From contig CM097885.1 in the NCBI GenBank assembly GCA_044892525.1, forward strand, positions 10,604,001 to 10,668,000: 64,000 nt of DNA, written 5' to 3'. The stretch comes from Schmidtea polychroa. Its lineage: Eukaryota. Position 1 is the first letter of the stretch, and each line of letters begins with the position of its first letter. The notes under the pieces are model-generated. The model searched no databases and was not told where the DNA came from. It saw only the letters and a list, made by a program, of their open reading frames with translations. Positions 9,461 through 64,000 of this stretch are shown here, one piece after another. Both the position numbers and the translations under genes were made by a program.

Positions 9461-9544
<84 letters not shown>

Positions 9545-9558
9545 TATAATTATAATAA
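9461..9558. repeat. (AAT)n microsatellite
   Basis: Directly visible. Confidence 0.97.
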
Positions 9559-15900: not shown

Positions 15901-17271
15901 CAAAATCACATTTTTTGCATTTTTCATTTTTTGTTGTAAATGTCTGTCAAATGAATAATTATATTTTTGGTATATATAATCCGATTTATTTCATCTCGGT
16001 TTGTTGATAAAATTCTAGATATCAGTAAAGTTTGAAGGGAAAATCTCCTTTTCAATATCCGAAACATCCGGTAAACATTTGTATTAGTTACAATATTGCA
16101 ACTGGATAATATTTGCATTCAATAATGTTAATATTAATTTCATATATAATTTATTTGTAATTATAATATAGATGAATTCTAATACAAAATGACTGCAATA
16201 CAAGTGTTGATTGGTGATTATTAAGCTGTCAATTACTGGTCTGACTCCGAGCGTGTTATTTGATAATGACAATGACAAATCACAACGACGTAAAACTTAA
16301 TTGATTATCACAATTGATTATAATGAATTTATCGATACCAATTTTCAACATACCTCAAATGTTTCAAGTGTTTATTACAACCAATCGGGAGTAATAACAC
16401 AACAATAATAATACTCTAAGAACACAACCACTTGACTACTACCGGTAATGGGTGATTTCTAAAATTGATCTGATTGCCTTTAACTTGATTTGAGTAATTC
16501 AATACGCAAGTTCCTTCCAACTGTTTCCTGATTCTCAACCATTTATTTTAAATCTGCTTATTAATTCAAATCTCTCGCCAATTTAGCTACTTTTTTCAAA
16601 TATTTCTCTCTACCATATTTTTTCTCGTCTCTGGTAGTTTGTGTTCAGTTTTCATACCTTGCTATTTGATGGCACTTATTGATAATTCATTGCTTTTTTC
16701 ACCTGTCCTATTGGCATTTCATAATCTTTGACAGCTGTCGAGATATATTTATTTTTTTTAACGATCCCATCTCTCGGATTTTCCAAATCCTTTTTTTCGT
16801 CATCTCGAATAGGCCAATTAGATAACAAGATAATTAAAAAGTTTGTTTTACTTTTTTTTCTTCTTTTGCACTTGTACTTGTTAATTAAGAATGACCTTCT
16901 TTTATTTAATTGTCTGTTTTTATTGAAATTCTTCTGTTCCCTTCCATTCCTATTTCACTGAGTTCCAGAACAAAACCCCATTCATTTATCATCAATTCCC
17001 CCCCAATCATTTTATGTTTTAATAATTATTTTTATTTTATTATTTAGGTATCCTCAGCACAAGTATAAATAGAGAAACGAGATAAAATAACTAAAATATT
17101 TATTGAAATGTATCATTTATTTCTATAAAATTAAAAATAGATGCTTATTTTTAAAATACTTAATTTCCAATATCTATTAAAAAATATCTATTAAGAAATA
17201 TAAATAAATTTAAAAATACTATATGACTTATTTAATATTTAATTAATTTTGCAGAAATAAATAATATAGTA

Positions 17272-24920: not shown

Positions 24921-24985
24921 ATTTTAAATATATTTGAAATTTTATTATATATTAAAATAGTAAAAATAATTAAATCAATTCCTAC

Positions 24986-25925
24986 TTTTGCACTGAGCTG
25001 GAGAGTTTACTGTTGCTCTTGCCCAAGGTAGATCTAAATAATTTTGTTTGCATCTTTCACAGTCTTGACCTTCAGTGTTATGCTGACAAACGCATTCAAT
25101 ATTGTTCGTTATAGAATTTTTATTGCAAGCATTTGCATGGCCATTACATTTGCATCGTCCGCCTATTGAAATGTCGGAAATTGACAAGATTTTTTTCGGA
25201 GAATTTCTGGCGAATCGGAAAATATTCGTCTTGTTCTGTTTCGGATTGTCGAATTTGAACAACGTGATACGAATATCAGACGCACTCATCCAGTCGATCA
25301 AACTGGAATCGCCAACGTTTTCATAAGCACCTTCTAAAACCGTATTGAAAGCCACAACCGGCTCATTGTCGGTTAGAGACAATTTTAACGGAAAACATCG
25401 AGCAGCTTGTTCTCTGCGGCGAATCTGAAAATCATTGAACTGTAAACTGGGAATTGTCGTTTCTTTCATATTGAACATTGATAAACAGTTCGTTGCAAGG
25501 TAATGCCAAGGTGTCCAAGTGATTCCGAAATTGTTGCTTTTATAAAAGGCAATGGCATTGGGAATTCCAGATTCACATGGAGTCAAAGAGATGTAGTAGA
25601 TTTCAAATCTCTTTGCAAATGAAAACGTAATATTTACATGATTCGCTTGTAACGGAACCGACTTCCAGCAGGTTTGATTGTGGGTTAAATGGTAATCTGT
25701 GATTAAATTATCCTTTGGAGATGTTATGTGACAGACTTCCTTCTTTCTACATAAAGTTTCGATCTTTGGAATCATGTTCTCCACAGTGTTTGTGAATGGA
25801 GGCATGCACTGATATGCCGATCCGTGAGCATAGCATGGACTGGGAGTCAAATTATTCATGTGTAACTGCGATAACACAAATTTGTAAAACATCGAAAAAT
25901 AAATTGTGAAAATATATCTGCACAT
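24986..25925 (-). CDS. netrin: Netrin coding exon 1 (signal peptide, laminin N-terminal domain, EGF repeat 1)
   Basis: MCRYIFTIYFSMFYKFVLSQ signal-like start; CMPPFTN, TCWKS, YKSNNFGITWTPWHY, DWMSASDIRI, GGRCKCNGHA..., PWARAT; GT donor at 24985. The upstream part of ORF 24975-26093 is probably UTR. Confidence 0.92.
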
Positions 25926-34434: not shown

Positions 34435-35214
34435 ATGGATCAGTCTCTGAAAGTTTCGATGAGTATTTTTATATTTCTAGGAATCGCTCTACCGATAATT
34501 AATTTAATATTCACCTCCAAGATTAAAGTGTTTAAATTTTTTCTTTTCCAATGGATTTTTGATTTGGGAGTTTGGATTTTCCCGGGATTTCGCTATTTCT
34601 TGATTGTTTTTTTTCAATTCGATCTTCGACAGTTAAATGACTATTTTGCACAGGTCCATGAATATATGACCTACATAGTTTTAGACTGTTCCATTTGGTG
34701 TCATTTGGCATTGTTTAATCAAATTAGCTGTCAATTAAGATTCATTTTGGTTATTTTGGGGATCTCTGTATGTAAGAACTTTCTGATCTTTATCCCGAGT
34801 GTATCGGGGTTGGTAGTGGTCGTAACCCACTTTGTCACAAGTATTTTAGGTCCTATTTTGTGTGAGATTGTGATATTTTGTTTGCCATACTGGAAACAGA
34901 ATTTTGCAAGTGAGAATAAAACTCATATAAAACTGTTGAAATATTATTTATTGAATTATATATATTTTGTTTTAACGAGCATTCCAAATGGCGTTTTTCT
35001 AATAATTACTAATTTGAGTGTTGAGGATTTTTTATCAGAGTCATTACATGGCTTAGTTTACAACTGGGTTTCGTTGCTTTATGTTGGGAGTAGTTTGGTG
35101 AGAGCTTTGACATTTATTATACTTTTCCGAGTTTCAATTATTTCTCATACTTCTTTAGGGGACAGTGAAAGTTATTTATCTACAGATATTGCTGTTATTC
35201 AATCAGATGTATGA
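34435..35214 (+). CDS. Divergent rhodopsin-like (class A) 7TM receptor, intronless CDS
   Basis: About seven hydrophobic segments; ECL1/TM3 FDLRQLNDYFAQVHEYMTYIVLDCSIW resembles invertebrate peptide-GPCR DIR...CKxHxFLTY..DxSxW; TM6 FVLTSIP. ATG at 34435; upstream TTCAG acceptor at about 34407. Confidence 0.65.
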   Translation: MDQSLKVSMSIFIFLGIALPIINLIFTSKIKVFKFFLFQWIFDLGVWIFPGFRYFLIVFFQFDLRQLNDYFAQVHEYMTYIVLDCSIWCHLALFNQISCQLRFILVILGISVCKNFLIFIPSVSGLVVVVTHFVTSILGPILCEIVIFCLPYWKQNFASENKTHIKLLKYYLLNYIYFVLTSIPNGVFLIITNLSVEDFLSESLHGLVYNWVSLLYVGSSLVRALTFIILFRVSIISHTSLGDSESYLSTDIAVIQSDV

Positions 35215-35284
35215 CACTAATAAATTATTCCTGTTATAGTTTGAAGTTTTATCTTATTAGGAAAAGTATTAGTTACAGAGTTTA

Positions 35285-36250
35285 TTAATAATTATATAGA
35301 AAATATTAATTATTATAAATAGAATATTAATTAATATATAGAAAATATTAATTATTAATAATAAAATATTAATTATTATAAATAAAATATTAATTATTAT
35401 AAATAAAATATTATTTATTATATAGAAAATATTAATTATTATTAAGATAATATTAATTATTATATAGAAAATATAAATGATTATAAAGAAAATATTAATT
35501 ATTATAAATAAAATATTAATTAATATATAGAAAATATAAATGATTATAAAGAAAATATTAACTATTATAAATAAAATATTAATTAATATATAGAAAATAT
35601 TAATTATTATTAATAAAATGTTGTTTATTATATAGGAAATATTAATTATTATAAATAAAATATTATTTATTATGTATGAGATATTAATTATTATAAAGAA
35701 AATATTATTTATTAAAAAAATATTAATTAATATATAGAAAATATTAATTAATATATAGAAAATATTAATTATTATTAATAAAATTTTGTTTATTATATAG
35801 GAAATATTAATTATTATAAATAAAATTTTAATTACTATAAATAAAATATTATTTATTATATAGAAAATATCAATTATTATAAAGATAATATTAATTATTA
35901 TTAATAAAATTTTGTTTATTATATAGGAAATATTAATTATTATAAATAAAATATTAATTATTATAAATAAAATATTAATTAATATATAGAAAATATCAAT
36001 TATTATAAAGATAATATTAATTATTATTAATAAAATTTTGTTTATTATATAGGAAATATTAATTATTATAAATAAAATTTTAATTACTATAAATAAAATA
36101 TTATTTATTATATAGAAAATATCAATTATTATAAAGATAATATTAATTATTATATAGAAAATATAAATGATAATAAAGAAGATATTAATTATTATAAATA
36201 AAATATTATTTATTATGTATGAGATATTAATTATTAAGATAAATATTAAT
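35285..36250. repeat. AT-only minisatellite, ~22-bp unit (AAAATATTAATTATTATAAATA-like)
   Basis: Directly visible degenerate tandem array. Confidence 0.9.
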
Positions 36251-36536
36251 ATGCGGACTTTTATTCTTGTAAATTTATTTTTTTACTAGTCATCCAAAAT
36301 GCAATTTCCAGTAAAAGTTAAATTGAGAAACATTCTCATATACCTATAAAATTTTAGAAGTAATACGCCATCTTTAAGTTCTAGCAATTTTTTTTACTTA
36401 ATTGTTTACATCAGGCATACTTTTAGGAATTTTTATTGTTTCTTTGATAATAGGTTTCCTCGTTTTCATAGAGGTTGCTTGATTTTCTGTATAAGAAGGT
36501 CTAGTTTAAAATTAATATTCTTTATAATAATTAACC

Positions 36537-40160: not shown

Positions 40161-40880
40161 GGGTTCGCGACTGTCGTTCGAATGTTTTACGTCTAGATGT
40201 TGCCATACCAATAAAATGGTAATACATGTTTTTGAATAAATAAATTCGAATTTTAGCCGGATTTTACGTAAATATGTTGTCATTCTATGAATAATTTGAT
40301 AAAAATGTCAGCAATGACTGTGTTGCGATCCACGGTGGAGATCGCCTCACAAAACTCCTGCTGATTGCGAGAAAAACGACAAAATGGCCTGTAGGAAGAC
40401 AACTAGTGCCTCCCATCCAACAATTTGTGACATTTCCCCCTATATGAACCCATAAATATATCTAAAATCATATAACATTCTATTTATGACATCTTTAATA
40501 AAATAATATAGACCAAATAATGATAAAATGATTAGTAATTACGAGGAAGAAGCAACTCCAATTTTTAAAACTTTATAAAATACAGAGATAAACTTCAAAA
40601 ACTAAAATTACCAGTTGTGACATCCTTGTTAACCTCTTAAGTGACTAATACGGATATATACGTCATCAACATATGCATTACAAAACACATAAGACGAATA
40701 AAAATATATCATGTGTAATGTACAGTTATATATTTTACTTATTTTTAAACAAGGTTTTGCGACGCCTTCTTATTTTATTGAGCGTAGGTCGCGCTGGAAA
40801 AAGAAATAAAAAACTATATAGCGATTATTTACCATAGTAAATTATCGCTATAAAAATATTGACAATTAAAAAAATTCAAT

Positions 40881-41165
40881 AAAGATTTGTATTTCAATTC
40901 AAAGATAAAGATAAAGTTTCAAATTCTATTAACAAGTCAAAAATTTGTATTTCAATACAAAAGTAAAGATAAAGATTCGAATCCTAATAACAAGTTAAAG
41001 ATTTGTGTTGCAATACAAAGAGAAAGACAAAGATTCAAATTCTAACAACAAGTTAAAGATGTGAGTTTCAATATAAAGATAAAGACAAAGATTCAAATTT
41101 TAATAATTAGTTAAAGATTTGAGTTCAGTATCAAGACAAAGACAAAGATTCAAGTTCTAACTAAC
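40881..41165. repeat. 58-bp tandem repeat, ~5 copies
   Basis: Unit AAGATTTGTRTTTCAATACAAAGA.AAAGAYAAAGATTCAAATTCTAA.AACAAGTTA. Confidence 0.9.
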
Positions 41166-41953
41166 CTATCTTCAACTACAAGGTTTTCATTTTTATTCTT
41201 GAAAAAAGGTTCATGTTAAAAAATCGTTATTGTTGATTTTATAATATATTTTTATACGTTCTAACATATCTTCACCCCAGCTGTCCAGAGACAATTTATT
41301 TACTGGAGACTCGGCTGGGTTCTACAGCATTCCTTTGTTATACACTAAACAAAAACTACAAACGACTCAAAATAATACACCCATAACAACACGAACCTCC
41401 CAACAATAAATATTACTTATGTTAGCATATATAAATATCATTCAATAAGATATTATTTTATTTTTAGTAACACAAAGTCTGCTGCGACTATCCCTTATAT
41501 ATATTTTTGTAAATGTATTTGACCAATCATTGGTTGCATTATTTTTATTTTTTAATTTATTATTTTTAAAATAAAATTTTTCCTTTACTTTTTATTTCTG
41601 ATTTATCAAATGATCGTCTTTACACATCATCCTTTTCCCACGTATAAGGTGGTAATTTTTGCGGTTGTCTTTTTTCGGCGATTTACTTTGTTTTTTATAC
41701 ATTTTAAGATGTGTTTCATGTGTAACGGTTTGCTTTTCATATTTTATTATTTATGTTTAATTTATTTTTAAAGTCGTTTTGTTTTTACTTTTATTTTGAT
41801 TGATGTTTTAAATTAATTATAAATATTCTTATTGTTGTTTTCAATGTTATATGAGTTGTCCCGGAAGCCACTTTGATTTCATTTACTTAATTACTGTTGA
41901 TTAAAACACAAAAAAAAACAGACCAAAAGGTTTTTGCTATTTAAGCGCTCGAC

Positions 41954-45119: not shown

Positions 45120-48100
45120 TTAATGGGATAACAATTGGATAGAAGAGGAAACCAAAACGTATGTTTGCTCCTTGCATTTGCCATGCTCGAGATTGTCTGT
45201 GTCAATATCTAAATAGTTGATGATAATCGTATCGAATTATAAGAATGTTACTCTTTCTCATTCCAATTCTAGTGGGCTTCTCGCTGTTAAACATTAGACT
45301 GACGCGAGATTTCACCTTGCTCCATTCTTCCATCAATTTTTGTCGATGCTCCATTAGTTTGCGCTTGGTTTCATTAGACATCATCTCATCCTGATGGGCA
45401 AATTGTTGATTGAATTTGGCCATGTTCTTTTTAATGTTTTTGATTTCATTTTCTGACAACAAGCAAATTGGTCTCGGCCTCCAAAGGATCTGCTTCAGTC
45501 CCTGGAACGGTTTATCCATCAACAATCGCCCAGTGATACTGTGAAATGTGACACCACAATCCCCAGTTTCATTGATCAGATTCTGTCGATAGGACATCAA
45601 ATATCGACCGGTTGGATCCCAGACGAAATCGTTCAAATTGTTCGTTTCAACTCTCTTCAGAACCACTCCATCGTGACCATCAATGAATTCAATAAAGCTC
45701 GTATTGGGCGTGGAACAGGCGATAAATTGACCAGACGGTGACCATTTTAGCATTGTCATTCGTGTGGAGAATCCGAAATCCATAATTTTCTGGGTTTGCC
45801 CGCTGGTTTTCAAATCGTAAATCAGAATACTTGTAGACTTTTGATTTGAAGTAAGAAAGGCAAATTTTGAGCCGCTTGCTTCCCAATCATTGGCAACAAT
45901 TTGTGTTTTTTCACTAATTGGAATCTTTTCCACGGGGATTTCTTTCTCTTTAACTCGGTAAATTTCCAAAATTGCACTTGATCCCTGCAATGGATCGTGT
46001 GAGGTTTCAATTTCGGCAGATAGACGATAATTATTGATTTGTGGATATTATTATGAAAAGGTTTTGAAATCGATAATTAATGATAAGTTGGACAGTTCTT
46101 ATTTTGAAAAAGTGCAGAAATCGATAATTAATGATGAGTTGGAAAGTTCTCACTGAATAATTATGAAAAAGCACAAAAATGATAATTAATTAATCAACTA
46201 TACTCCTAAATTGTACAGACCTTGAGTCCCACAATTTCCATCAGTTAATCGACTTTACCCCAAATGACCTTGACCTTTCCTTAAAATACGATTGGCCCCT
46301 TAGGTAATTATTGATCACACTCCCCAATCAAAAAACGGTTGCGCGCCTGGTGTTCACTATTGGCATTATTAAGAGGTGAATATTATCAGGCATATTAACT
46401 TATGAACTCAAGTTATTCCTTTTGGTCTTATTTCACATGTCCTCTGGATATCGAGATAATTGTCATTGGCTATCGTGATTATCATATAGGGGGATTATAT
46501 CTAGGCGTGGGAAAAGGCATTCAAAAACGACAACAATATCCTATTATTAATATATCGATTGATAATATTTATTCTAATTGACTTATTAATTAATAATATC
46601 AATACGATATTATCCAATAATCTCTAATCCAAATTTTATTATCGTTTCAGTGGTGCTAAAGTTATTTTCTAATAATTATTATTTACTATTGATGATGGTA
46701 AAATTTTGGCAACATGATTTTAAAAATTCGACAACTGATAAAATAAATAATTTCTGTGTGCTCTTTGTCAGTTACAAAATTATCAGAGTGAATTCGACAT
46801 CAAATGGGAATTAAATCGATAAATTAATTTTGTCAATAAATGATTTTTTAATTAAAATAATTAATTTTGTTCATTATTGGAATATTGCAATTGATCATAT
46901 GGAAATTAAATCGATAAATTAATTAATTTTTGTCAATTATTGATTTTTCTAAATTAGAATATTTTTAAAAATGGAATTTTACTATCGATCAAATGGAAAT
47001 TAATTAATTTGTACATTTATTGAATTTTACAATAGATCAAATGATGGATATCGGTAAATTTAAATTATTGGTCTTTTAAGTCGTTCAAATTGATTAGCTT
47101 AAATCGAATAAAATATTGATTTATTATAACCCATCAACTGAAACTAAACCAATAAATTATTGTTTTGGCTATCGATGTTTTCTTTTTTACGTATCTCTCC
47201 TCAATAACCGCCAAAAAGTCGTCGATAAATAAATGAAATTATTGATTTTTTAATTAAAATAATTAATTTGTCATTTATTGATTTTGAATTGAAATAATTT
47301 AGTCCATTATAGCAATTTTACTATCGATCAAATTGAAATTTAATTGATAAATTAATTAATTGATTGTCAATTATTGATTTTTAATTAAATAATTTTGTCA
47401 ATTATTCGAATTTTACAATTGATCATATAGAAATTAAATCGGTAAATAGATTTATATTAAATAGATTTATTATAATCTATTAACTGAAACTAAAATCAAT
47501 AAATTATTGTTTTGACTAAAATCGATCTAATCAAATTGGTTGATAAACGTTTTAATAAAAAAATTAATAACTGCTTTTGTTTAAATTATCCAAAAATCAA
47601 TATAAAAAATAATTACTTACAATATATTAAAATTTATTATCGACGTTTTCCATTTCTCCACAATAACCGCAAAAAGTCGATAAATAAATTATATCAATTA
47701 TTGATTTTTTTTAAATTAAAATAATTAAAAAAATGGAATTTTACAATCGATCAAATTGAAATTTAATTGATAAATTAATTAATTTTGTCAATTATTGGAA
47801 TTTTACAATTGATCATATGGAAATTAAATCGACAAATATATTTATATTAAATGATTTATTATAATCTATTAATTGAAACTAAAATCAATAAATTATTATT
47901 TTGACTAAAATCGATCTAATCAAATATTAAATAAATCCTGATTGGGTGATAAACGTTTTTAGAAAAAATAATAATTGCTTTTGTTTAAATCATCGAAAAA
48001 TTCAAAAAATCCTAAAATCAATATAAAGAATAATTACTTACAATATATTTAAATTGATTATCGATGTTTTTCTTTTTCACGTATCTCTCGCCAATAACCG

Positions 48101-49371
48101 CCAAAAATTCGTCCTGTGAGTTCCATTTCAACGAGATTTCGGCAACATTAAAAAGCGTCTTGGCAAAAATTTCCTTCTTAGTCGGCAAGCTAATGAGAAC
48201 GATTCTAGCTGGAGTGCTCTCCTGCTCACCAACCCAATACGATATCAAATGGCCTTTGGATGACCAGGTGAAATCCTTCACTCCGACAATCTCGATGCTC
48301 TTCTTATCGACCATTGCACAGTTTTCCGATTGATAAACCGATATTTTGTCCTTTTGCTTCCTAGCGAAATATCTATCATCGAAACTCCAGCGAAATTCCG
48401 GCCAGAATTGATTTTCATCCTCGTCGGTTTTTGGAATGATAAACTCTCTAATCAGCGTCCCGGTTACGACATCCCATACATTGACAACAAAGGTTATATT
48501 GTTCAAGCTGAATGTCATGGCAAATCTGAAATGGAAGAGGAAATTCTGATTTCACGTTGAAGAGAAAGGAGAGATTTACTTTTCGTTCGGTGAGAAATGA
48601 ACATGTCGCGCTTTGGTGTGGAGAAATCGATTAACTTGTATGAATTTCTCGCCACCCCATAAAGCAATACCTTTGTCGTGGATTGTTGCCATATACGTGC
48701 CCAGGGGTGACCAGAGAACAATGGCTTCGGTAAAATCACTTCGATTCCATTTTGTTTCGAGATCTCGCGACGAATGTTCAAAAATTGTAATTTCACTTTT
48801 ACTGTGGATTAACAATTGGTCTCTACATTGACGCTGTAAAAGCCAAGAAAGCATATCGTTCTAATAATGGCCAGTGTCCAGTTAGAGATGGATTTAATTA
48901 TTTTAAAGCTTTACCTGATATCTCCAGACTAAGGGTTCTGGTTCTTTCCATTCATCATTTTCATTCATTAGTTGCTGGAATTCAGATAATATAATTGTTC
49001 GGAAAGTGTGGCTTTTGTCGAAAGCAACTCCGTTAAATTGCTTATGAGCCATCATAGCAATTTCGTCGGTTGGGAAGGTTACGAAAATAAAACCTTTGCT
49101 TTGATTGTTTTCATCCATGGGAATTACGACATTTTCACATTTCATTTTGCTTTTAATAAATTTTTTTAATTGTTCAACTTTACTTTCGGGAACAATAGGA
49201 AGTCCGGCAACTAAAAGTTGATTTCCTATGTTCTGTTCTTTGCATGGTTTAGGGAGAAGCTGTAATTCATTTATTTCTTTAAATAATTTATAATTATAAT
49301 AGGCATAATATATTTAACTGCATACCTTGATCAATTATTTGTTCAATATTCATTTCACTTATCTTCGTCAT
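45120..49371 (-). CDS. EIF3B: Translation initiation factor 3 subunit B; complement(join(45120-45208,45252-45984,48042-48525,48580-48860,48915-49276,49326-49371)), 664 aa
   Basis: RRM (VAGLPIV, KGFIFVTF, FDKSHTF); WD-like repeats WSPLGTYMAT, GIALWGG, FSPNEK, WPEFRWS, WSPSGQF, WDPTGRY, WRPRP; C-terminal IDTDNL. All introns are GT-AG with consistent phases; total 1995 nt. Confidence 0.93.
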
Positions 49372-50966
49372 TGACGTTTTAAATATTAATTAATATTAAA
49401 ACAAGGTATTTAAATTATTACTAAATAATTTTTTAATTAAATAAAATGAGATATGAATTCGAATTTAGATATTTATTAGTTTTGTTAATTAATTATTGCA
49501 AACAGAATCTCATACTTTATAATCAAATTGAAAATTACAAATTAAAATAATTTGAGAATATAAAGTTAAAAGCAAATATACAAATACATATATTGAAGTG
49601 TAGTTGCTATCCTAATTTTGTTCCTGTTGGCATACTAACTCATTTTATGGTAGAACGGTTCCCTTATACTGGTAGGTTATGAGTGGGGAAACCTTTCGTA
49701 TCGATATGTGTCTTATCCTGTCGACCCTTTCGTTGTATCTACATTCCTTTCGCAACCACATAACTATTTATTTGACCTCTAAACGCCCGTCGCGAGTTAC
49801 TTTGGTACATCGATTCAGTAGAAGGTGAGCCTATCATAAGGACTACTGATATCATAACGCGCCATTCGGTTCATGGGCTTACCGTAGAAGGTGTAACAAC
49901 TTATTGAATCTTGTCTCTTTATGATTTTATAATACACCATAACTTTATAGTTGATTTTTGTATCAGATTTCTGGATTCGGAATTTTAACGTAAAACAAAT
50001 GAAATTTTCTAAGAATTTGAAATACGAGATTGTGCGATCGGCAATTTCTGCCAAGATATCTACGATTATGTTGACAAAATATATCGAAGTTATCCATATT
50101 ATGAGAATATTTTTAATAGAGTAATGTTCAATTTATTGTTCAGTCGAATTCGTTACAATTTTAAATTATTCCAGAAAATCAAACTTTCATTTGACTTCAA
50201 GAAATTTTTTCAAAATGTTTTGTTTAATTCGTTTCTTTACTAACTTTTCTTTTCACTAGTCACATGATTTTATTCGACGTGCTTCTAATTATATGATTCT
50301 TTCTAATTTACATGTTGTGGGTCACGAATAAGGTAAACTTTCTTATTTCTATACGTTCTGCCATGTCAATGGTTGTATTATGTCTACATTCCTCGCGCAA
50401 CGTTGATGCTGCGATTTAACGGGTTACTGTCAGTTAAAGGTGAGCCCTAACATATTGGGATACTAATGCTCTGACCCGCCTCTTGGTTCATGAGCTTCCG
50501 TAGGTATAGCACTCTAATTTTTCATATTCCTCACCATATTACCATCAATTCCTAGCCCTTTGTTGTTGGGTTTTCCCTTAAATTTCCATGATTGAAAATA
50601 GAATTTAATGTGAATCTAAAGAGTACGAAATACGAGATTTAGTTAATATGTAGCCTATGTTAAAATGTCTCCAATGATGTTGATTAAAATACATCGAAAT
50701 TACCCATATTCTATAACTACCTGATTTAATTAAATGGCGTTTAATTTATTGTTCAATTAAATTGGTTATAAACGTAAATTGTTTGGCAAAATCTCATACT
50801 CTCTTTGATTTCAAAATGACGAAAACATTTTATTCTTAACTAATTTAAAATAAATAAATTATAACTGCTTCAACTTTTAACAGTTTTATAAATAAACTTA
50901 CAAATATGTAAGAGCAAGCAAAATAAAAAAAATCATTGAACCACTTTGAAATTTCTTGGTGACACA

Positions 50967-51207
50967 AGTAGTGGGTATATGACCCTCATGGACACATCCA
51001 CCCTGATAAAAGCTACTTCCAAACACTTAATATATACTAATAACACCCCTAATTTTTACACTTTTAACTCTTTTAGACCCTCTATTTTCAACACAAAAGC
51101 CAAGCTTTCTATTTTAAGCCCCCTATAAACAGAAAGAAAAAAAGAGAAGAACAAGAAACTCACAAACTATCAATGGCTATGTCCATGAGGGTCATATACC
51201 CACTACT
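50967..51207. repeat. Polinton terminus with an internal 28-bp perfect inverted repeat
   Basis: AGTAGTGGGTATATGACCCTCATGGACA at 50967-50994; reverse complement at 51180-51207. Confidence 0.92.
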
Positions 51208-51306
51208 ATAGCAAGCAAGCCGCCAACTTGACAAATTGCAAACTAAAATTATAAATATTTTAAAATCTTGAAAACATAGTATCCAATAAAAAAATTTTTT
51301 AAAAAA

Positions 51307-54300
51307 ATGAATCCTAATATTTATGCTTGCACTATTTGTCAAAAAAATTTTAAAAATAAAACTGCACTACTTTCACACCAAAAATCAAAAGCTCATTTAT
51401 TAAAAATAAATAGACTTGATAATTCAAACTCAAAAATCTGTACTAAATGCAAAGTAAGATATTTACTTTCAGGATATGATAAACATTTTGAAAATTGTAT
51501 TGGAGTTCCTAAAAATAGAGAAAAATTTGAATGTTCTATATGTAAATCAAAATTTAATATAAAATCTTATTATTTAAAACATGTAAAAAAATGTGCTATA
51601 AAGAATAACCAACCAATACCAGAAAGTCATTCTGAAGATTCTGATATTGAACCTGAACATATTGAAAAAGAAAAATATAATTGGGACAACTTTAATCATA
51701 TAGATGTATTTACAGAACAAATGTTTTCAACAATCACAGATTGTATAAGAAGAAATAAACAAAACATAAAAAATTCAATGGATAATGCTATAAAAAAATT
51801 TGGTCAATCAAGATTTAACATTATAAAATATAAAGTTAGAATCTCTGCAAGATATTGGAGGGGAGAAGAAATAGAAACAACTCCTCTAGATGTTGATATC
51901 GAATCATCATTTAAATATTTATTCTCAACAAAGGGAATAAATAAAATCATCAAAGATTTAACTCAAGAGATGGAAGAACAACAAGAACAAGTAGAACAAG
52001 AATTGGGAGAATCTAATTTAAGATTCCACTCTTTCAAATCTATAGAAATTGAATATTGGAGAGCAGCACCACCAAATCCCAAATCTTTTATTCGCACACC
52101 ATTCAACTCCATCTATGTTATAAATGTAAAAAATAAAGATGATAAATGTTTCCAATGGTCAATACTTGCACATTTACATCCTCAAGCAAGGAATCCTCAA
52201 AGGGTTTCAAAATATAAACAATATGAAAATGAATTGATTTATCCAACAGGATTTAAACATCCAATGAAAATTGAAGATATTCCAAAATTTGAAATTTTAA
52301 ATAATATTAAACTTAATATTTATGAACACATTCCAGATAATGATAATTTAAAACATATTATACCAATTTATATTTCAAATAAAGAATTATTAGAACAAGA
52401 TAAAAATAGAGAAATAGATCTTTTAATATTAGAAGAGCAAAGCTCTACAGGACAGGATGAAGAATATAGAGAATATGTTTTTAATGAAGAAACTGAAGAC
52501 GATGGGCAAAACCCAACAGATCAAGAAGAAAGCCCAACATTAGAAAAGAAACAACATTATATTCTAATAAAAAACTTTCAAAGTTTTATGCGTACAATAA
52601 CACAAGTTAGAGGAGGAACAACTTGTAAAAGATGTCTTCACTATTCAACCTCTAAAAACTCAATGATTAAACATGAAAGATTGTGTGACAAGAACCAAAC
52701 AGCATTAATTAAAATGCCTATAAACTCAGACATGAACTTTAAAAATTATTCAAATTTATTAGAATCAATGGGTGTAATATATGGAGACTTTGAAGCAATA
52801 AATATAAAACAAGACTTGGAAAAAGAATATTTAAAAATAATAGAAAAAAATAATTTATTAGATTCTTGGTGTGATTATTCAGATCGAGTTCCCCTTGAAT
52901 CTCTATCTGAGAATATGAAAAACTTTCTAAAGTTAAATAATAAATCCTATACAATAAAATTAACCAAACAAATACCTTCGGCTTATAAACTATTTTTTAA
53001 AAGTAATTACCCCAAACTCATAGAATCTAAAGAATATTCATATAGAGGAACCTCTGAAGAAGATGTTTTAAATCATTTTACTAAAAATATAAATGATCTA
53101 GAACATGAATTATTTAAAATATTAAAAACAGAATATAAAATAAATTTTTCAACTGAACAATTTGAAGAATATAAAAATTCTACAAACTGTTGGATGTGTA
53201 AACAATCCTTTGAGAGCTTCGCGACCCCTGAGAATCAACTCCTTGAAGATTCTTCAGATATCGAGTCTATTGAAGAAGAAGAACAAAGAATGTTTCATGA
53301 AAGACAACTACAATCTTCGAAAAACATAAAAGTACCAGATCATGATCATTTTAAAAAATTAAATAATTATCGAGGAGCAGCTCATACAAACTGTAATATA
53401 AATTGTAAAAAACCTAAATTTATACCAGTTATATTTCATAATCTTTTTGGATATGATGTACATTTATTTATAAAGGCCCTAGCTGCAAATGCTAAAAATT
53501 CTTTCAAACTAATAGGTTTAACAAAAGAAAAATATAAATGTATACAATATGGATGTTTAAAATTTATAGATTCTCTAAATTTTTTAGGAATGTCTCTAGA
53601 TGCAGTAGCAAAAACAATGAAATCAGAAGATTTTAAATATACAACCACCATGGTTTTGATAAAAAATAATATTCCCTTGGAAGAATATCCAACATGTTTA
53701 GCAAAAGGAATATATCCATATGATTATATTGATTCATTTGATAAATATAATGAATCCTTACCAGAGAAAGACAGCTTCTTTTCAAACCTTCAACAATCAA
53801 ATATTACAAATCAAGAATATTCTCGAGCAAATAAAATGTATCAATTATTCAACTGTCAAAACCTTGGAGAATATACCGACATGTATTTATCCCTTGATGT
53901 TTATATTTTAGCTGACTGTTTTGAAATCTTCTGTAAAGCCTTTGAATTAAAACCCTATAATTATATAACATCTCCCTCTTTAGCTTGGGATATATTGTTA
54001 TATAATATATGGACTGAAAGTCATTCTGAAGAGGGTGATAGGAATAAAATAATAGAACTATTAACTGATCTCGATATGTTTAATGTATTTAAACATAATA
54101 TTAGAGGGGGTGTTTCCTCTGTAATGGGGGATAGAGAAATAACTACAAATAATTCCTTAACCATTTGTAGAAAATTCTTTAAAGATACAGATGCAGACTA
54201 TATAGAAGTAAAAACACAAGAAGATTTTAATTTAATAAAACAAGGTTTATCAAATCCATGTGAAATATTTTATACTGATGCAACTGCTCTATATGGCGGT

Positions 54301-56673
54301 GTAATGACTCAACATTTACCAATTTCTAATTTCTCATGGGTTGATATTCCTAAAGAAAAAGATAAACTAGAAGATCTTTTAAATGAAATCCTATCAACTC
54401 CTAAAGATTCAGAATTTGGATATGTTATAGAATGTGATCTCGAGTATCCAGATGAAATAAAATCTAGAACTAGGTATTTCCCATTTGCACCAGTAAAAAG
54501 AAAAATCAGCATTGAAGAACTTTCAGATTGGCAAATCAGACAAAATAGATCAACTACTACAAAACTTTTATGTGATCAAACAAATCGAACTTATTATCTT
54601 TGTCATTATAGGTTATTACAATTTTATCTTTCGCATGGAATGATATTAAAAGATGTTCACAGTATTATAAAATTCAAACAAGCAGCATTTATGAAAAAAT
54701 TTATATATGGAAACATTAGAAAAAGAAATGAAGCAAAAAGAAATGGAAATGCTTTTCTAGACATGATTTATAAACTTTTAAATAATGCAGTCTTTGGTAA
54801 GACTATGGAAAATGTTGATAAATATACTCGAGTAGAACTTTTATCAAATACTCCAAAAGACTTTGCAAGATATAATCGAATGCTTGGAAAACCTACATTT
54901 AAAAATGCTGAAGTATTCTCAAAGAATCTTGTGGCAATTGAAATTCAAAATAGTGAAAAAACTTATAACAAACCAATCTTTATAGGCTTCTCTATTTTAG
55001 AATTATCAAAACTTCAAATGTATGAGACTTATTATGATATTCTAGTACCTCACTTTGGAGATCGAATATCAATGCATGGTATGGATACAGACAGCGCCGT
55101 ACTATCGCAAGTGCAACAAGTGCAATCGCACTGGGCCCCCTATTTTTGAGGGGCCCCAAATATTAAATACATTAGAAAAACTTCTCCAATACCATAAATT
55201 ACTACGAATTGAAAGAAAAAAAAAAATTTAAAAATTCAAAATTCGTTTAACTTTCAAAAAAAATCTAGTTGGCAACGATTTAATTTGAAACAAATATACC
55301 TAATAATTCAGTTGTTTTTTGCTTCAAATTGTTATCTTCTGTTTGTTTATTATATCGTCTTATTAGTGGAAAGTAATATTATTTCAAAGTTATAAACAGA
55401 AATAAGTTTTATTTTAATTTTTTGTGGATAATGTGCATCGTAAATTATAAAATACGGTATTATTAATAATTTACATTTTTTGTGTCTACCGTTAGTATAA
55501 GTGCGGATATTACATAGTAATTTTAGGTTTAACGATTCGTTTATATATTTAATAAATTGTAATTTTCACTTTTCAAATTAAATTTGAGTTAACGAACATA
55601 GTTTGAAAACATATACTGTATATATGTCGCAGGAAAGACTTTCTGGATTAGCAATACTGTCAATTGAAAATGCAACAGCCAGAACAATTGATTACAATGA
55701 CATAATTGATGAATTTGCCAGCAAAAGAGCTAGAAAAATTACTTTATAATTGCTATTATTTTTTTAAATACAATCAATAAAAAATTTATTCAAATTTAAA
55801 AAAAAATTTTTTTAGTTTCTGCACAGGGCCCCCAAAAGTTACAGCACGGCGCTGGATACAGATAGTATGTTTTTAAAAATATATAGCAAAGATGTTAAAA
55901 AAGAAATATCTGAAAGTGAAATCCTAAGTAATTTAATAAATGCATCTGGAGAATTATTCACCTTTAAAGATGAAAAACCAAATACCCCAATAACTGAGGC
56001 TATATTTATCAAGGCTAAACAATATTCACTAGAAATGATACAAGCACCAAAGATGAAAAAACACACAATTAAAATCAGAGATATAAACCCAATAACCTTG
56101 GAAATGGAAGAAATAGAATATACAAGTGAACAACCTATAATAACCTTTGATACAAAAACTCTTAAAGATAACAAAAGTAAAGGGATACAAAAATCTGTAT
56201 CCAAAACAATTGCCAATCAAGACTATAAAGATTCTCTAAATAAAAATTATATAGATAAAATGGTTGAGGTACATCAACTTAAATCAAAGAAGCATAACAT
56301 GTATTTAGAAGAATCAGCCAAGATAGCATTATCAAATTATGATGACAAAAGATTTATTCTAAGTGATTTAAAAACAACTCTTCCAATTGGAAATGATTTA
56401 ATCCCAATAATAAAAAATCTTGAAAAAATAAATGAACTTTATAACCTAAATATTACCGATCTTGATATTTATAAAATCGAGATTATATACCCAGAGCTTC
56501 CTCAAAGAGTTCCACAAAGACTTGCACAAAAACCACTATATAATCAAGTTCAAAACCCAATATCCATAGATGTAAAATATTTAAATATAGATTCTGAATA
56601 TATTCAGGGATTATCAGGACAGGAATTCGAATCTCATAGATTGATGTTAGAGAACATCCAGTTTCAGTCATGA
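51307..56673 (+). pseudogene. pPolB: Protein-primed family B DNA polymerase, split by a MITE; join(51307-55091,55863-56673) gives 1531 aa
   Basis: N-terminal zinc fingers; DDKCFQWS; exonuclease GDFEA and FHNLFGYD; HNH/EndoVII-like DHDH..YRGAAH..CN; KGIYPY; polymerase DATALYG, KLLNNAVFGK, MDTDS; YDDKR. Removing the insert and one TSD restores a single frame. Confidence 0.95.
55092..55854 (+). mobile_element. Non-autonomous hAT (Tip100-like) element, 763 bp
   Basis: TIR CAGCGCCGT(A/G)CT; perfect 8-bp TSD GATACAGA (55084-55091 and 55855-55862); carries a transposase tail MSQERLSGLAILSIEN...IDEFASKRARK*. Confidence 0.95.
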
Positions 56674-57284: not shown

Positions 57285-57986
57285 TCATCCACGATTTAAA
57301 ACTTTATCTAATTCTTCATCTCCTTCAGAATGACTTTCAGAATGACTTTCAGAATGACTTTCAGAATATCCCGACATCTCTTCCTTTTCTTTATTATCAA
57401 AGATTTCAAAAACTGAAGGTTGATTCCTAGGGATCGCGAAGCTCTCAGAGGTCAAGTTCCCAGAATGCTCCCCAGAACCTAAAATATCTTTTGACTTTGT
57501 ATCCATAGACTTTGTATCCATAGACTTTGTATCCATAGACTTAATATCCATAGACTTAATATTCTTAAAAATACTATTTACTCCATTAGATTTAAGAGCT
57601 GAACAAATATGATTCTTCTGAGAAGATTTAAAAACTTTTGAACAATCTGTACAATAAAAAGATTTCTCCTGAAGTCCCAAGATATTTGTTTTAGGTTTAT
57701 TTTCAATCTTATTTTCAACCTTGCTCCTTTTATCAGCATGTCCCTTCTCTTTCTTTTTACCCTTAACAGCATGCCTAAAAGGAGAAGGCATTCCTAAATC
57801 ATTTCTTATTCTTCTCATAGTAGAATCTGAAGTGCCAAGCATTTTACAAATTTGAGATTGAGTAAAATTAGGATTCTCACTTAAAATCTTTGTAAACCCT
57901 AAAGCTTTTTCTTTTAATAAAAACATGTTTAATTTAGAAGTATCAACTACTACAACTTGATCGACTTTTTTTAAAAATTCATCCAT
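57285..57986 (-). CDS. Polinton putative DNA-binding protein (HTH plus zinc finger), 233 aa
   Basis: FTQSQICKMLGTSDSTMRRIRNDLG is HTH-like; CTDC...HIC; SMD(I/T)K and SESH repeats. Confidence 0.75.
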   Translation of the reverse strand: MDEFLKKVDQVVVVDTSKLNMFLLKEKALGFTKILSENPNFTQSQICKMLGTSDSTMRRIRNDLGMPSPFRHAVKGKKKEKGHADKRSKVENKIENKPKTNILGLQEKSFYCTDCSKVFKSSQKNHICSALKSNGVNSIFKNIKSMDIKSMDTKSMDTKSMDTKSKDILGSGEHSGNLTSESFAIPRNQPSVFEIFDNKEKEEMSGYSESHSESHSESHSEGDEELDKVLNRG

Positions 57987-58642: not shown

Positions 58643-59623
58643 TTAAACTCTCAACAGGACTTTATTATGAGGTATCAATATTCGAATATCATAAGAAGCT
58701 CGTCTTGAGTGAATATCTTTATACAACTCCATCAACGCTTTATGAACTTCAAGAACATCAACCTTTCTTTCATAAAATATTAAATCTATATAATGTACAA
58801 GTGTGCTTTTAAAAATAATCTCTTTACTTTTAGTTTTATGTGCGATGTATGAATCAGTCATACCTGGACGAGTATTAACATGCCAATCTCCATTTGGTAA
58901 ATCATAACTAGCCATTATAACATCACCCTTTTCAAGCTTACTATTATAATCAGATTTCACAAACCATTTCATTCTTTCGCCATCATCATCAAACAAAAAG
59001 AAATAAGGATCAATAATCTTTACAACCATAAAAACACTCCAGGATTTACTATTTGTTGTTATTAAACTTGGTTCTATAAAATGTTTAAAGTTATCAGGAA
59101 GTAATGTTTTATTCTGAGGTAATTCAGCAGCTCTTTTTCTAATACTATGTGTGGTGTTAATGTGTGTTCCATGAGACTCTAAATTTGAAATTCTTTTATT
59201 AAATGATGTAATCAACTCATTTATTATATTATATATTGTATTAAATTTAGTATTCATAATTTGTTTATCTTTAGAGTTTAATATGCTAGTATTTAACTTT
59301 ACAACTTGTTCAGTTAACAGACTTTGTAACTTGTCAAATTTATCATTAAATCGTTGTTCGATATTATCAATTTTTGTTGTTAATGAACTTTCAATTCTTG
59401 TTGTTGTTAAATCAGTATAATTTTTAACACCATCAACATATTTTTTATTAACTGCATCAGCTTCATCAGTTGGAAAAGATAATTCTTTTATCTTGTGTCC
59501 ATTTAAATTTAAATCTCCTTTCATCGAATCACCTCTTTCATTAATATATCTCTTTTCTGTAAGAAATATAACATCTTCATCTTTTAATCCATCATTATAT
59601 AATCCAAACTTGTTATAATTCAT
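58643..59623 (-). CDS. Fiber-like virion protein, 326 aa
   Basis: GDSMKGDLNLNGHKIKELSFPTDEADAVNKKYVD fiber/stalk motif, long heptad region and globular C-terminus; adjacent to penton. ATG at 59623. Confidence 0.7.
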   Translation of the reverse strand: MNYNKFGLYNDGLKDEDVIFLTEKRYINERGDSMKGDLNLNGHKIKELSFPTDEADAVNKKYVDGVKNYTDLTTTRIESSLTTKIDNIEQRFNDKFDKLQSLLTEQVVKLNTSILNSKDKQIMNTKFNTIYNIINELITSFNKRISNLESHGTHINTTHSIRKRAAELPQNKTLLPDNFKHFIEPSLITTNSKSWSVFMVVKIIDPYFFLFDDDGERMKWFVKSDYNSKLEKGDVIMASYDLPNGDWHVNTRPGMTDSYIAHKTKSKEIIFKSTLVHYIDLIFYERKVDVLEVHKALMELYKDIHSRRASYDIRILIPHNKVLLRV

Positions 59624-59657: not shown

Positions 59658-60467
59658 TTAAACCTGTTTCAAAGATAAACACATTGAAATCTTTTCTCCA
59701 TTAAAACTAATTAACTCTCCATCTTCATCAACAATTCTAAAACTAATATCCATTATATTTTTTCGACATAAAGGTAAATAATTTGGAGGATTCATTCTTT
59801 CAACCATTTTATATCCTACTCGTACAATATTAGAAGGAAAGGAATATAAAATATTTGCATGTTTACCATTATTGTATGATCCCATTATACAATCACACTC
59901 TATATTTATAGAATTTGTATTTGTTATTTGTATAATATTTTTAGATTTAATAGTTGATGGTGTATATTCTCTGACTTCAAAACCTAAAATAGTATGAAAG
60001 AAACTAGAAGTAGTAACACCAAGTCCAACATTTTTTAAAGTTAATATACATTTTGAAGTTTGTACATCTGCTTTTATTTCTACATCTCCATTTGTTTCTT
60101 TTAAAATTGTTTTAGCTAAATCTACTATTTCATATGATCCTGGTTCAATTGTTATAATGTTATATTCCCTAGAAGTAATCTTTTCATATTCACTATTTTT
60201 CAATATACTAGGTTTAATAAATGAAACAGAAACCCGAGGTATTTTATCCTTCATAACTATAATAAATTTATTATTATTATTATTTATATTAAAAATAGTA
60301 TTAAAACAGGAAAACCACAAGAGTCCTAATTCATAATTTAAATCTTGATCTAAATTTATTGAATCTTCAAAATTTATAGTAAAGTCTGATTCTTTTGAAT
60401 TTATTAATAAACTTCTTGAATATTTATTTGACATTATGTTTACCATTTTTTTTAAATTATCCTCCAT
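59658..60467 (-). CDS. Minor capsid protein (penton, single jelly roll)
   Basis: F.INF...I.L, I.PGSYEI.DL, INIECDCI.GSY.NG...ILYSF, YLPL....I..I.FRI.DEDG..I.FNG. Confidence 0.85.
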   Translation of the reverse strand: MEDNLKKMVNIMSNKYSRSLLINSKESDFTINFEDSINLDQDLNYELGLLWFSCFNTIFNINNNNNKFIIVMKDKIPRVSVSFIKPSILKNSEYEKITSREYNIITIEPGSYEIVDLAKTILKETNGDVEIKADVQTSKCILTLKNVGLGVTTSSFFHTILGFEVREYTPSTIKSKNIIQITNTNSINIECDCIMGSYNNGKHANILYSFPSNIVRVGYKMVERMNPPNYLPLCRKNIMDISFRIVDEDGELISFNGEKISMCLSLKQV

Positions 60468-60483: not shown

Positions 60484-60927
60484 TTAAAGTAGAGATTTTA
60501 AATCATTATAAATTTCTTGGATTATAGATTCAAAATCTCCTTTGGATTTATTTAATCTATACAAAACATATAAGCATAAAATACCACATATTTTATTATT
60601 CCAAGGTTGAACTTGTAAAGAATTAAAAATATAGTCTCCCGAGAGATAATCTTCAACTTCTTTAGTAGGTTTAATCCCAAAAGAATCAAAGTATATAGAT
60701 TTGCCTTCTCTATTATATATACAAACCCAATGAGATCCTTTTTCATTTGAATTTTGATAATTTATAATGATATTCTTTGGAGTGTCTTCTTTCAGACTTG
60801 ATAATTCATCATTCATTAATATTTTTATTTTTAAATTTAAATAATTTGCATAATCTTTTAAATCAAAATTTGTTTTTGCATTTATTCCAAATGTTTTTAA
60901 AAAATCTAATATTGAAGGACAAGTCAT
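60484..60927 (-). CDS. Adenain-like cysteine protease
   Basis: GSHWV, YFDSFG and Q......CG..C give the His/Asp/Gln/Cys catalytic set. Confidence 0.92.
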   Translation of the reverse strand: MTCPSILDFLKTFGINAKTNFDLKDYANYLNLKIKILMNDELSSLKEDTPKNIIINYQNSNEKGSHWVCIYNREGKSIYFDSFGIKPTKEVEDYLSGDYIFNSLQVQPWNNKICGILCLYVLYRLNKSKGDFESIIQEIYNDLKSLL

Positions 60928-61900: not shown

Positions 61901-62509
61901 TCATTTTAAATTTATACCATTTTGGAGTTCGAAGGGTTTCAAATATAAACCCTTCCCATTTTTAGTTTTACAAATACACCCATTCTTTAAAGACTTACAT
62001 ATTTTTTTAAAATCATCTTTATCCTTTGAAGATAAAGATTTAGATGATGAAATTTGATTTTTTAAAAAATCATTTAAACCACGGCCTTTATAAGGATCAA
62101 GATAGAGACCTTTTCCAATGAATGGAGTCCCTTCAGGCAGAGTCTCTTGAGGCTTTTGTCTTTCGAATGCTTTCCCCTTTAATAATTCAATCTCTTTTAA
62201 TATTTTTTCTTTTTCAGCATCGGCCTTTTGACCTTCTTTTATTATTTTTTCTTTTTCTAATTGTTTATTTCTAGCATCTCTTGAATTATTCACTACAGTC
62301 GCAACACCACCAGCTATTCCAGTTGCACCAGTTATTGCAGCAGTAATGATAGGTATTAAAGCAGCTAATGGAAGAATACCTCCTTCTTTGATATGCTCTT
62401 TAACTTGTTCTTTTACATGTTTTCCAATAAAATATTTTTTACCATTGATTACAACTGATTTACTTTTATTTGAATTTATTAATTCTTGAAAGGATTCTTC
62501 TTCTGTCAT
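61901..62509 (-). CDS. Adenovirus pX-like core/membrane-active protein, 202 aa
   Basis: GGILPLAALIPIITAAITGATGIA resembles adenovirus pX GGILPLLIPLIAAAIGAVPGIA; repeated GKGLYL / GRGL. Confidence 0.75.
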   Translation of the reverse strand: MTEEESFQELINSNKSKSVVINGKKYFIGKHVKEQVKEHIKEGGILPLAALIPIITAAITGATGIAGGVATVVNNSRDARNKQLEKEKIIKEGQKADAEKEKILKEIELLKGKAFERQKPQETLPEGTPFIGKGLYLDPYKGRGLNDFLKNQISSSKSLSSKDKDDFKKICKSLKNGCICKTKNGKGLYLKPFELQNGINLK

Positions 62510-62520
62510 TTTTTAATAAA

Positions 62521-63324
62521 CAAAATAATCGAAGACCTCCGGATACTTGGAAACCAATTTTAAATAGACATAAGAGTAAATTTAATAATAAAGTATTTCC
62601 TGATAATTTTAGATTATTAATTGTTGGTTCTTCTGGATGTGGAAAGAATGTACTTCTTTTGAGGATGTTGCTTGAAGATGATTTTTTAGATTATAATAAT
62701 TTAATCTTTTACTCTACAACCATAAATCAATCAGAATTACAACTTTTGAAATGTGGATTTGAAAATAAATTAACTAAAAAAGCAATAATTGATATTTTTA
62801 AAAATCAACATAGATGTCCTGAAGAAGTTTTTCAACCTTGTGATATGGTTGATTGGTATAAGGAAAAGATTTTAGAATCAGATATTAGTAATAAAAATGA
62901 TTATATTTGTGAAGATGAGTGGATCCAAGTTTTATTCTCTAATAAACCTGAAGATGTTTTACATTGTGATTTACTTCCTAAAGATAAAAAGAATCTAGTT
63001 ATATTTGATGATGTTGTTAATATGAAAAATCAAGAGATTCAAAAGAGTTACTTTACAAGAGGAAGACATAATAATTGTAATGTTATTTATATATCTCAAA
63101 CTTATTATGCTTTAGATAAAAATTCAATAAGAAATAATTCCAATTGTTTTATATTTTTTAAATTAGATCGCCGTGATAAGAATATGATTTATAATGATTT
63201 ATTTTCAAATGTTGAACCTGATAAGAATATGTTTGATATGTTTGTTGATAATCATTGGAAAGAAAAATATAATTATATTTATTTGGATAGAGAAGAAGCT
63301 GAAATGTGGAAAAGTTTATTTTAG
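62521..63324 (+). CDS. A32/FtsK-HerA-family DNA packaging ATPase (start codon uncertain)
   Basis: Walker A GSSGCGKN, Walker B LVIFDD, RGRHNN, ISQTY and IRNN. Confidence 0.9.
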   Translation, partial: QNNRRPPDTWKPILNRHKSKFNNKVFPDNFRLLIVGSSGCGKNVLLLRMLLEDDFLDYNNLIFYSTTINQSELQLLKCGFENKLTKKAIIDIFKNQHRCPEEVFQPCDMVDWYKEKILESDISNKNDYICEDEWIQVLFSNKPEDVLHCDLLPKDKKNLVIFDDVVNMKNQEIQKSYFTRGRHNNCNVIYISQTYYALDKNSIRNNSNCFIFFKLDRRDKNMIYNDLFSNVEPDKNMFDMFVDNHWKEKYNYIYLDREEAEMWKSLF

Positions 63325-63335: not shown

Positions 63336-64000
63336 TTAGAAATCTGTTTTCTGTAATTCATTATTGTAAAATCTACCCAATATTTTTTCATTATTTAAAT
63401 CAATGATGCTATATGTTATTGGAGTTGTATGATGTATTTTATTTATAATAAAAATTTCATTTGTCCATTTTGCTGTGAATCCTTTTTCAAATTTATTTTT
63501 ATATTTAAATATTCTTACGCGGTCACCAATTTTAAACTTTGGTTTTATAGGGGTTGTATCAACAATAACATCATTTTCAATATTTACCACTTTAATGGTT
63601 TCAGGATTCAAGGAAGCATTTAAGGGTGTTAATTTTATAGAACTATGTACATCATTATTATATTCATTTACAATCTTTTGTAACAATTCATTGTTCCATT
63701 TTTGTTTTCCAATAGCAGTAAAATATTTCCACATTTTATTTTTTAATGTTCTATTTAATCTTTCAACCACAACTGCTTTTCCTTCGTTTTCTGTTGAATA
63801 TAATTTAATATCATTTTCATTTAAAAACTTTGTAAAAACTTTGTTATAAAATTCTGTTCCTTTATCACACCATAAATATTTTGGAATTCTTAGATGTTGT
63901 TCAAATATATTTTCAAATGCTTCTGTAATAGAATATCCTGTTTTATTTTCTAAACATCTTGCAAAAGCAAATCTTGTATATAAATCTATTACTGTTAAAA
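63336..64000 (-). CDS. Polinton retroviral-like (rve) integrase, 5' part outside the window
   Basis: Frame open from 63998: LTVIDLYTRFAF..., WCDKGTEF, VERLNRTLK, YNNDVHSSI, FKIGDRVRI, FYNNELQK. Confidence 0.93.
   Translation of the reverse strand, partial: LTVIDLYTRFAFARCLENKTGYSITEAFENIFEQHLRIPKYLWCDKGTEFYNKVFTKFLNENDIKLYSTENEGKAVVVERLNRTLKNKMWKYFTAIGKQKWNNELLQKIVNEYNNDVHSSIKLTPLNASLNPETIKVVNIENDVIVDTTPIKPKFKIGDRVRIFKYKNKFEKGFTAKWTNEIFIINKIHHTTPITYSIIDLNNEKILGRFYNNELQKTDF

Follow-up and report, generated by a model that had tools for sequence, protein, structure and literature searches.

The window analysed here, 64,000 nucleotides of Schmidtea polychroa DNA (contig CM097885.1 of assembly GCA_044892525.1, positions 10,604,001 to 10,668,000 of the forward strand), ends in 13 kb of a Polinton/Maverick element whose left part lies within the sequence and whose right end lies beyond its 3′ edge (Table 1). 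The element starts about 1.8 kb upstream of the most 5′ exon that we see of the host gene eIF3b; a search with one eIF3b exon, 45202-45783, gives two unnamed proteins as the best matches (90% and 68%) and flukes as the best named matches (38%). Other parts of the window hold pieces of an LTR retrotransposon pol gene (2470-5527; protease, reverse transcriptase, RNase H and integrase), an exon encoding laminin N-terminal and EGF domains of a netrin- or laminin-like protein between long TAA/TTA arrays (24975-25925), a 21-bp AT-rich tandem array (35150-36300), a 58-bp tandem array (40822-41169) and a dispersed intronic repeat of about 80 bp (46855-47852).

Table 1. Features of the Polinton left part and its host flank, in window coordinates
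Feature	Coordinates	Strand	Evidence and remarks
Host eIF3b exons	45202..49145	-	exon 45202-45783 searched, remaining exons identified by reading
Last six host bases, GACACA	50961..50966	+	candidate left copy of a 6-bp target-site duplication (TSD), its partner beyond the window
Terminal ~135 bp common to many family members	50967..51100	+	depth step; terminal inverted repeat (TIR) proper or conserved leader
Outer arm, true left terminus with (AGT)2 end motif	50967..50994	+	perfect 28 bp
Imperfect inward extension of outer arm (element positions 29-42)	50995..51008	+	9/14 columns with a 2-nt gap, null 0.005
Spacer (loop) between the perfect arms	50995..51179		185 nt, AT-rich
5-bp direct repeats ACTAT either side of inner arm	51166..51209	+	at 51166 and 51205
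Inner arm, imperfect part	51168..51179	-	possible template-switch landing site or decayed part of a ~40-bp copy
Upstream ORF, 12 codons	51173..51211	+	three in-frame ATGs from the inner arm; not in the reading frame of pPolB; may be chance
Inner arm, perfect inverted copy of the first 28 bp	51180..51207	-	stops exactly at the terminal base
pPolB, protein-primed DNA polymerase B	51307..55149	+	N-terminal C2H2 zinc finger; PF03175 E 3.7e-12, above cut-off
Non-coding insertion, 763 bp, short TIRs	55092..55854		8-bp duplication 55084-55091 / 55855-55862
ORF past the insertion	55867..56673	+	no Pfam match
Candidate minor capsid protein	59658..60467	-	Atlas feature score 0.98 to viral clusters; tblastn 30% to L004
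Candidate adenain-like protease	60484..60927	-	weak PF03412, below cut-off; tblastn 37% to L004
Adenovirus protein X-like core protein	61901..62509	-	PF05829 E 6.6e-7, above cut-off
Packaging ATPase frame	62449..63324	+	phrog_2666 E 1.4e-7
Retroviral-like (rve) integrase, cut by window edge	63336..63998	-	PF00665 E 3.5e-8; 49% to L004

On testable features the element is a member of the Polintons/Mavericks (polintoviruses, adintovirus-like), with which it shares pPolB, the rve integrase, the packaging ATPase, candidates for the protease and the minor capsid protein, an (AGT)2 end, and an apparently polymorphic insertion with a sharp boundary. The available portions of PMC8097293 and PMC10748475 give the ends of this group as 5′-(AGT)2//(ACT)2-3′, and the former, in the same limited portion, names (AGT)2 as the commonest end motif of vertebrate Mavericks, thought to allow jump-back priming. 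An earlier note on this DNA had taken the AGTAGT terminus for a Polinton left end, with which both the gene content and the boundary between host contig and element at 50966/50967 agree. We find 31 homologues of pPolB, and the integrase, ATPase, protease candidate and capsid candidate all match L004, a complete AGTAGT-ended element; by tblastn the protease candidate matches 18 pPolB-bearing loci, while a search of the PDB gave nothing relevant for it. The minor capsid label is a candidate one that we infer from size and context. The protein X-like ORF and the ATPase are arranged head-to-head, and the ATPase frame is open from 62449, with its Walker A-like motif upstream of the first ATG (62665) and no earlier in-frame ATG. 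The insertion at 55092 interrupts the pPolB frame, which terminates within it; because the break falls near the last catalytic motif, this copy is not autonomous. We take the insertion to be hAT-like, a superfamily label that follows from the length of its target-site duplication, and the ORF past it is, by its position, the probable C-terminal part of pPolB. No major capsid gene was recognised within the window, where the element is unfinished, and the 12 element ORFs scanned gave no match to the TBP family. A 326-aa ORF (58643-59623) whose N-terminus resembles phage tail-fibre families (phrog_2710 E 2.8e-8) is a candidate virion fibre. A 12-bp tandem repeat at 57323-57365 lies in a 233-aa ORF (Ser-Glu-Ser-His repeats), with copies resembling it near 51622 and at 53207-53239, and has an 18-bp inverted match at 54014-54031 in pPolB.

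The left end of this element carries a second, inverted copy of its own terminus. The two 28-bp arms match without a mismatch in a 28-mer scan of the whole window, a two-fold match that none of 100 dinucleotide shuffles reproduces, and 32 of 34 positions match when the pair is taken further inward. The earlier note had described this repeat, 185 bp inward and about 100 bp ahead of pPolB, with coordinates that are all correct: the arm ends at 51207 and the pPolB ATG stands at 51307. Complementarity stops beyond both arms, towards the flanks. Inward, with a 2-nt gap, an imperfect homology of about 40 bp reaches over 50967-51008 on the outer side and 51168-51207 on the inner side, and the 9 of 14 further columns that match are equalled by 0.5% of 3000 shuffled loops. 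All four arm differences fall within the inner 14 of 42 positions, for which a hand calculation gives a probability of about 0.01 if differences were evenly spread. The duplex of the 28-bp arms has a computed energy of -34.8 kcal/mol, and predicted single-strand DNA folds are strong for both the plus strand (50967-51310, z = -5.75) and the minus strand (50967-51207, z = -8.9), making a local panhandle, one of the two readings offered by the earlier note, thermodynamically plausible in these models; the RNA fold of the putative 5′ UTR (51150-51330) is ordinary (z 0.35). The ACTAT repeats on either side of the inner arm are a weak sign of what would be a microhomology-mediated insertion, and the 12-codon upstream ORF may be a chance product. 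A TATA-like TATAAAC at 51124, in the loop, was rejected as a promoter: the motif occurs 12 times across the 13 kb of the element, is absent from the 70 nt upstream of 10 of the 10 ORF starts checked, and is non-specific.

Short-read contigs were used to place the integration boundary. Four of seven runs, from two studies (X1 and X2; X3 and X4), were aligned to 50450-52250 at 80% likeness; X5 and X6 were left out, and X7 contains almost none of the region's words. The depth of the host flank is flat (about 40, 46, 171 and 47 in the four runs), and in all four a host contig of single-locus depth aligns exactly up to 50966. In X1 and X2 this contig continues with 23 non-fitting letters, which we read as the empty site, and in X3 and X4 it stops at 50966, so that, from this behaviour, the insertion appears to be polymorphic. 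The empty-site contigs do not show the flank joined to the element body, one X3 sibling contig starts exactly at 50967, and no joint skipping or flipping 50967-51207 is among the 15 of 21 joints listed, though weaker, shorter-sided joints appear. Since the host contigs end or diverge at 50966 and no listed joint skips the cassette, the outer end is the one that was integrated, and the 241-bp cassette and the body arrived together. The junction letters also permit a reading in which an unrelated TA-targeting MITE sits in an AGTACT site and mimics AGTA...TACT ends; with the empty-site contigs of X1 and X2 diverging at 50966, not 50970, and no joint to 51206 listed, we give this a negligible probability. 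A Tc1/mariner-type TA MITE, whose empty site would restore a single TA between joined flanks, was rejected: the empty-site contigs depart at 50966, and no skipping joint is among those listed.

Sibling copies of the element carry the same layout. A 164-nt sibling contig, present in X3 and X4, two runs of one study, joins the loop to the arm and the body. Its alignment covers 138 nt (51120-51257), differs at 15 positions plus 2 gap letters (~88% identical), has more than 31 letters on each side of 51207 and reaches 50 nt into the body. Another X3 contig of similar depth spans 50967-51098 with 14 differences, and the two may derive from one sibling. A C>T change at 51177 is present in four contigs of X1 and three of X2 and accounts for most of the depth there; it is the sole variant in 51060-51329 among the 40 of 403 entries listed, and it falls in the imperfect part of the arm. 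At 51177 the summed contig depth, which should not be read as a copy number, exceeds that of the flank by a factor of 8 to 17 in all four runs. A one-off rearrangement of the window copy, or a misassembly, was the case that the earlier note had set against its own proposal, and it would fit with the finding that no near-100% contig spans the whole cassette among the 32 of 4817 pieces listed; the independent bridging contig, seen in two runs, and the summed depth at 51177 in all four make it a remote prospect.

The inner arm is not common to the whole family. Between 51094 and 51105 the summed depth decreases by a factor of 6 to 7 in X1 and X3 and of about 5 in X2 and X4, and family homology mostly ends near 51100. 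X4 contains a joint from 51095 to 51269 via different sequence (depth 398), and X1-X3 have loose ends before 51270/51271, where many siblings are unlike the window. Siblings of these two kinds indicate that the arm is dispensable for the family, and the depth fall near 51100 together with the alternative joints and loose ends indicates that it marks a minority subfamily. The expectation that siblings share the internal inversion is thus borne out for the bridging sibling and the contigs with the 51177 variant and fails for other siblings, which are without the region. We conclude that the inner-arm layout is a real, inherited, subfamily-level variant of the Polinton end, the sibling arm being known from contig alignment.

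Depth also bears on the proposal of the earlier note that the cassette is a self-contained mini-replicon or MITE, copied and integrated alone by the Polinton enzymes. Its two end motifs are complete and correctly oriented, and as a short unit bounded by the ends of an autonomous partner it resembles MITEs and non-autonomous Polintons; here, however, there is no depth excess, the cassette is fused to the body in both the window copy and the bridging sibling, and no TSD surrounds the unit, its flanks GACACA and ATAGCA differing as had been described. An amplified 241-bp unit would give a plateau up to 51207 and then a drop. The depth does not step down at 51207, the bins 51121-51181 and 51182-51242 being alike in the four runs (1668/2230, 2236/2002, 6636/6715 and 849/1064), and where it does fall, near 51100, is within the cassette, so that the MITE reading is unsupported. 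No loose end at 51207 is found among the 24 of 656 listed, which is weak evidence; likewise the 15 of 21 joints listed include no strand-changing joint (loop flip or snap-back centre). Because contigs drop rare forms, stand-alone copies, flipped loops or snap-back centres may exist at low frequency. Abundant stand-alone 241-bp copies are unlikely, and we regard an independent mini-replicon as very improbable.

The search was extended to distant relatives. Profile scans yielded 35 and 80 pPolB loci and 30 integrase loci; single-protein scans of viral contigs with pPolB and integrase returned no relatives, and alignment scans did find them. Three elements (L004, L029 and L060) have AGTAGT ends on both sides and four more (L025, L031, L034 and L168) have inverted repeats at the contig ends, and we find an inner inverted terminus at none of the 14 ends of these seven elements, with scores of 10-26 against 58 for the window. 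Among 1118 end-type motifs in 144 partly redundant loci (1.18 Mb), a set that leaves out 51 pattern-scan loci, none has an inverted copy at 17/20 within 1 kb. With 24-43% identity in pPolB, these distant elements are a poor guide to near relatives. The closest, L036 (43% identity), has no ACTACT in the 183 nt before its ATG. Its first nine bases also occur in the inner arm of the window, and with its own first ~26 bases missing it is an incomplete control; its start aligns to positions 27-44 of the outer end (14/18, null 0.002), and because no ACTACT follows we read it as a homologue of the outer end. A 25-mer of the terminus has no match in viral contigs and an 18-mer none in prokaryote genomes. 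The 41 matches of a 15-mer in viral contigs were set aside as chance; no match carried on past the 15-mer (5 of the following 13 bases at best).

A gapped pattern with the shape of the cassette finds 10 loci with perfect arms of 9-15 bp. The best of these, L116 (28/30), was rejected: its arms extend outward, it is a repeat, and its record is without a pPolB match. Its positions 1020-1900 hold a nested inverted-repeat family with AGTAGTGGG, in a giant-virus bin and unrelated to the window element. The partial pair of L083 is degenerate and located inside its locus, and no TIR was found in L167 when searched. L183, a contig of Polinton-like-virus type, holds two intergenic modules of about 340 bp in inverted orientation (951-1292 and 11539-11865), each bounded by inverted short-repeat arrays; these are not termini, and the contig encodes a D5-type primase-helicase, a label assigned by reading. 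In L004 the complete AGTAGT-ended element spans 324-15708, and its flanks (1-323 and 15705-16027) are mutually inverted, possibly an assembly effect.

Two accounts of the inner arm carry most of the weight. One, which we consider possible but doubtful, is that the arm is kept for a function, as a local panhandle or a self-priming hairpin, the geometry being given by the sequence and the use conjectural. On a displaced minus strand, the 3′ terminal 28 nt would pair with the inner copy 185 nt away and rebuild a duplex origin locally; alternatively, the recessed 3′-OH, facing the body, would self-prime a snap-back copy. In silico, both the geometry and the fold allow the minus-strand 3′ end to fold back as a primer on a continuing template. 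That a Polinton subfamily evolved a self-folding left end, with local origin rebuilding or self-priming by a parvovirus-like snap-back route, seems to us rather unlikely; if the snap-back were true, it would yield a palindrome arranged head to head about the 185-nt loop. In the rolling-hairpin telomeres of parvoviruses and the fold-back telomeres of Streptomyces, the 3′ terminus pairs with a complement no more than about 200 nt inward, in structures of several nested palindromes required in every genome. The fold-back distance is similar here, but there is one stem, in only part of the family. As far as the available part of PMC11886824 goes, displaced strands in PRD1 and adenovirus are usually pictured as panhandles, which also serve to explain how end repair restores homology, although the panhandle itself has not been directly demonstrated. 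The likeness to that model (PMC11886824, same portion) is that the terminus of a displaced strand pairs with an inverted copy and a duplex origin is rebuilt; the partner there is the far genome end, whereas here it would be 185 nt distant, and folding of the minus strand would leave its 3′ end recessed.

This standing in end-repair models favours a maintained function, as do the strong predicted stems on both strands, the confinement of the arm differences to the inner 14 bp, a layout common to copies at about 11% divergence, and the position of the sole listed variant in the imperfect part. Against it, the arm is missing from other siblings and from all distant relatives examined, no strand-changing joint is among those listed, and family-wide homology stops near 51100, from which it follows that the right TIR may not include the arm.

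The account we prefer, with confidence that is evenly balanced, is that the inner arm arose when a template switch duplicated the origin in this subfamily alone, and that it is now a passenger. The inverted duplication of the terminus would have occurred in an ancestor of the subfamily, and the copy would since have travelled with the whole element. During strand-displacement synthesis from the left origin, the polymerase would, about 200 nt in, have switched to the displaced plus strand, landing on a short, partly complementary stretch (positions 29-42). It would then have copied back to the protein-capped 5′ end of that strand, run off at base 1 and returned to the original template, possibly via the terminal ACT; the ACTAT repeats at 51166 and 51205 fit such a re-entry. 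We infer these switch junctions from the sequence. In double-stranded DNA the inner copy would not be an end and would be largely inert, and in displaced single strands it could form a local stem of 28-40 bp that the element tolerates.

A double template switch would yield a copy that is inverted, near the end and stopping exactly at the terminal base. We count for it the perfect 28 bp followed by an imperfect 14-bp patch, and the ACTAT repeats around the arm; the absence of the arm from other siblings, from 14 of 14 distant ends and from the surroundings of the 1118 motifs is counted for a passenger. At the sibling divergence of 10.7%, the probability of no change in 28 positions is 0.21 if only the inner arm drifts, which is compatible with neutral decay, and 0.04 if both arms drift freely, which is borderline and would fit selection or repair of the 28 bp. 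If the whole ~42 bp was copied, the crowding of the four differences in the inner 14 would instead point to selection or repair. The available portions of PMC7954356 and PMC11724301 document short-range template switching in other systems, as short inverted templated copies with microhomology near a DNA end, most of them about 5-34 bp in a yeast study; those switches arise in host replication or break repair, whereas here a protein-primed polymerase would be copying to a capped end.

A further possibility is that the inner arm is what remains of a genuine right end that the integrase inserted into the 5′ region of a sister element or, by auto-integration, of its own molecule, and that recombination or deletion later trimmed. 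At 51207/51208 a terminal ACTACT is joined to unrelated DNA, like an integrated end, and 51100-51170, not common to most of the family, could be right-end sequence. Such a capture would be expected to bring a whole TIR, for which the portions available to us give 46-1447 bp in vertebrates (PMC8097293) and generally 100-1500 bp (PMC10748475), yet the homology here covers only 28-42 bp, and no 6-bp duplication is tied to the junction; we judge it improbable.

An inverted terminus copy inside the left end sets this element apart from the Polintons described in the available parts of PMC8097293 and PMC10748475, and we found no inner inverted terminus in the Polinton literature searched, as far as titles and the beginnings of abstracts show, with Repbase and supplements outside the scope. 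The adenovirus mutants with embedded inverted terminal repeats are laboratory mutants with a duplicated left end. What they share with this element is an additional origin placed internally, close to one end of a linear genome replicated by protein priming; the copy here, in contrast, is natural, inherited, short and inverted, in an integrated element. Polinton replication has so far been deduced mainly from sequence, and a subfamily found in nature with its origin repeated 200 bp in from one end provides a ready-made test. If the arm is a passenger scar, it is a minor structural variant. If inner arms drift across diverged siblings, the arm would be a datable relic of the strand displacement that the Polinton polymerase carries out; if they track their own termini, the stem would form in vivo and be repaired or selected.
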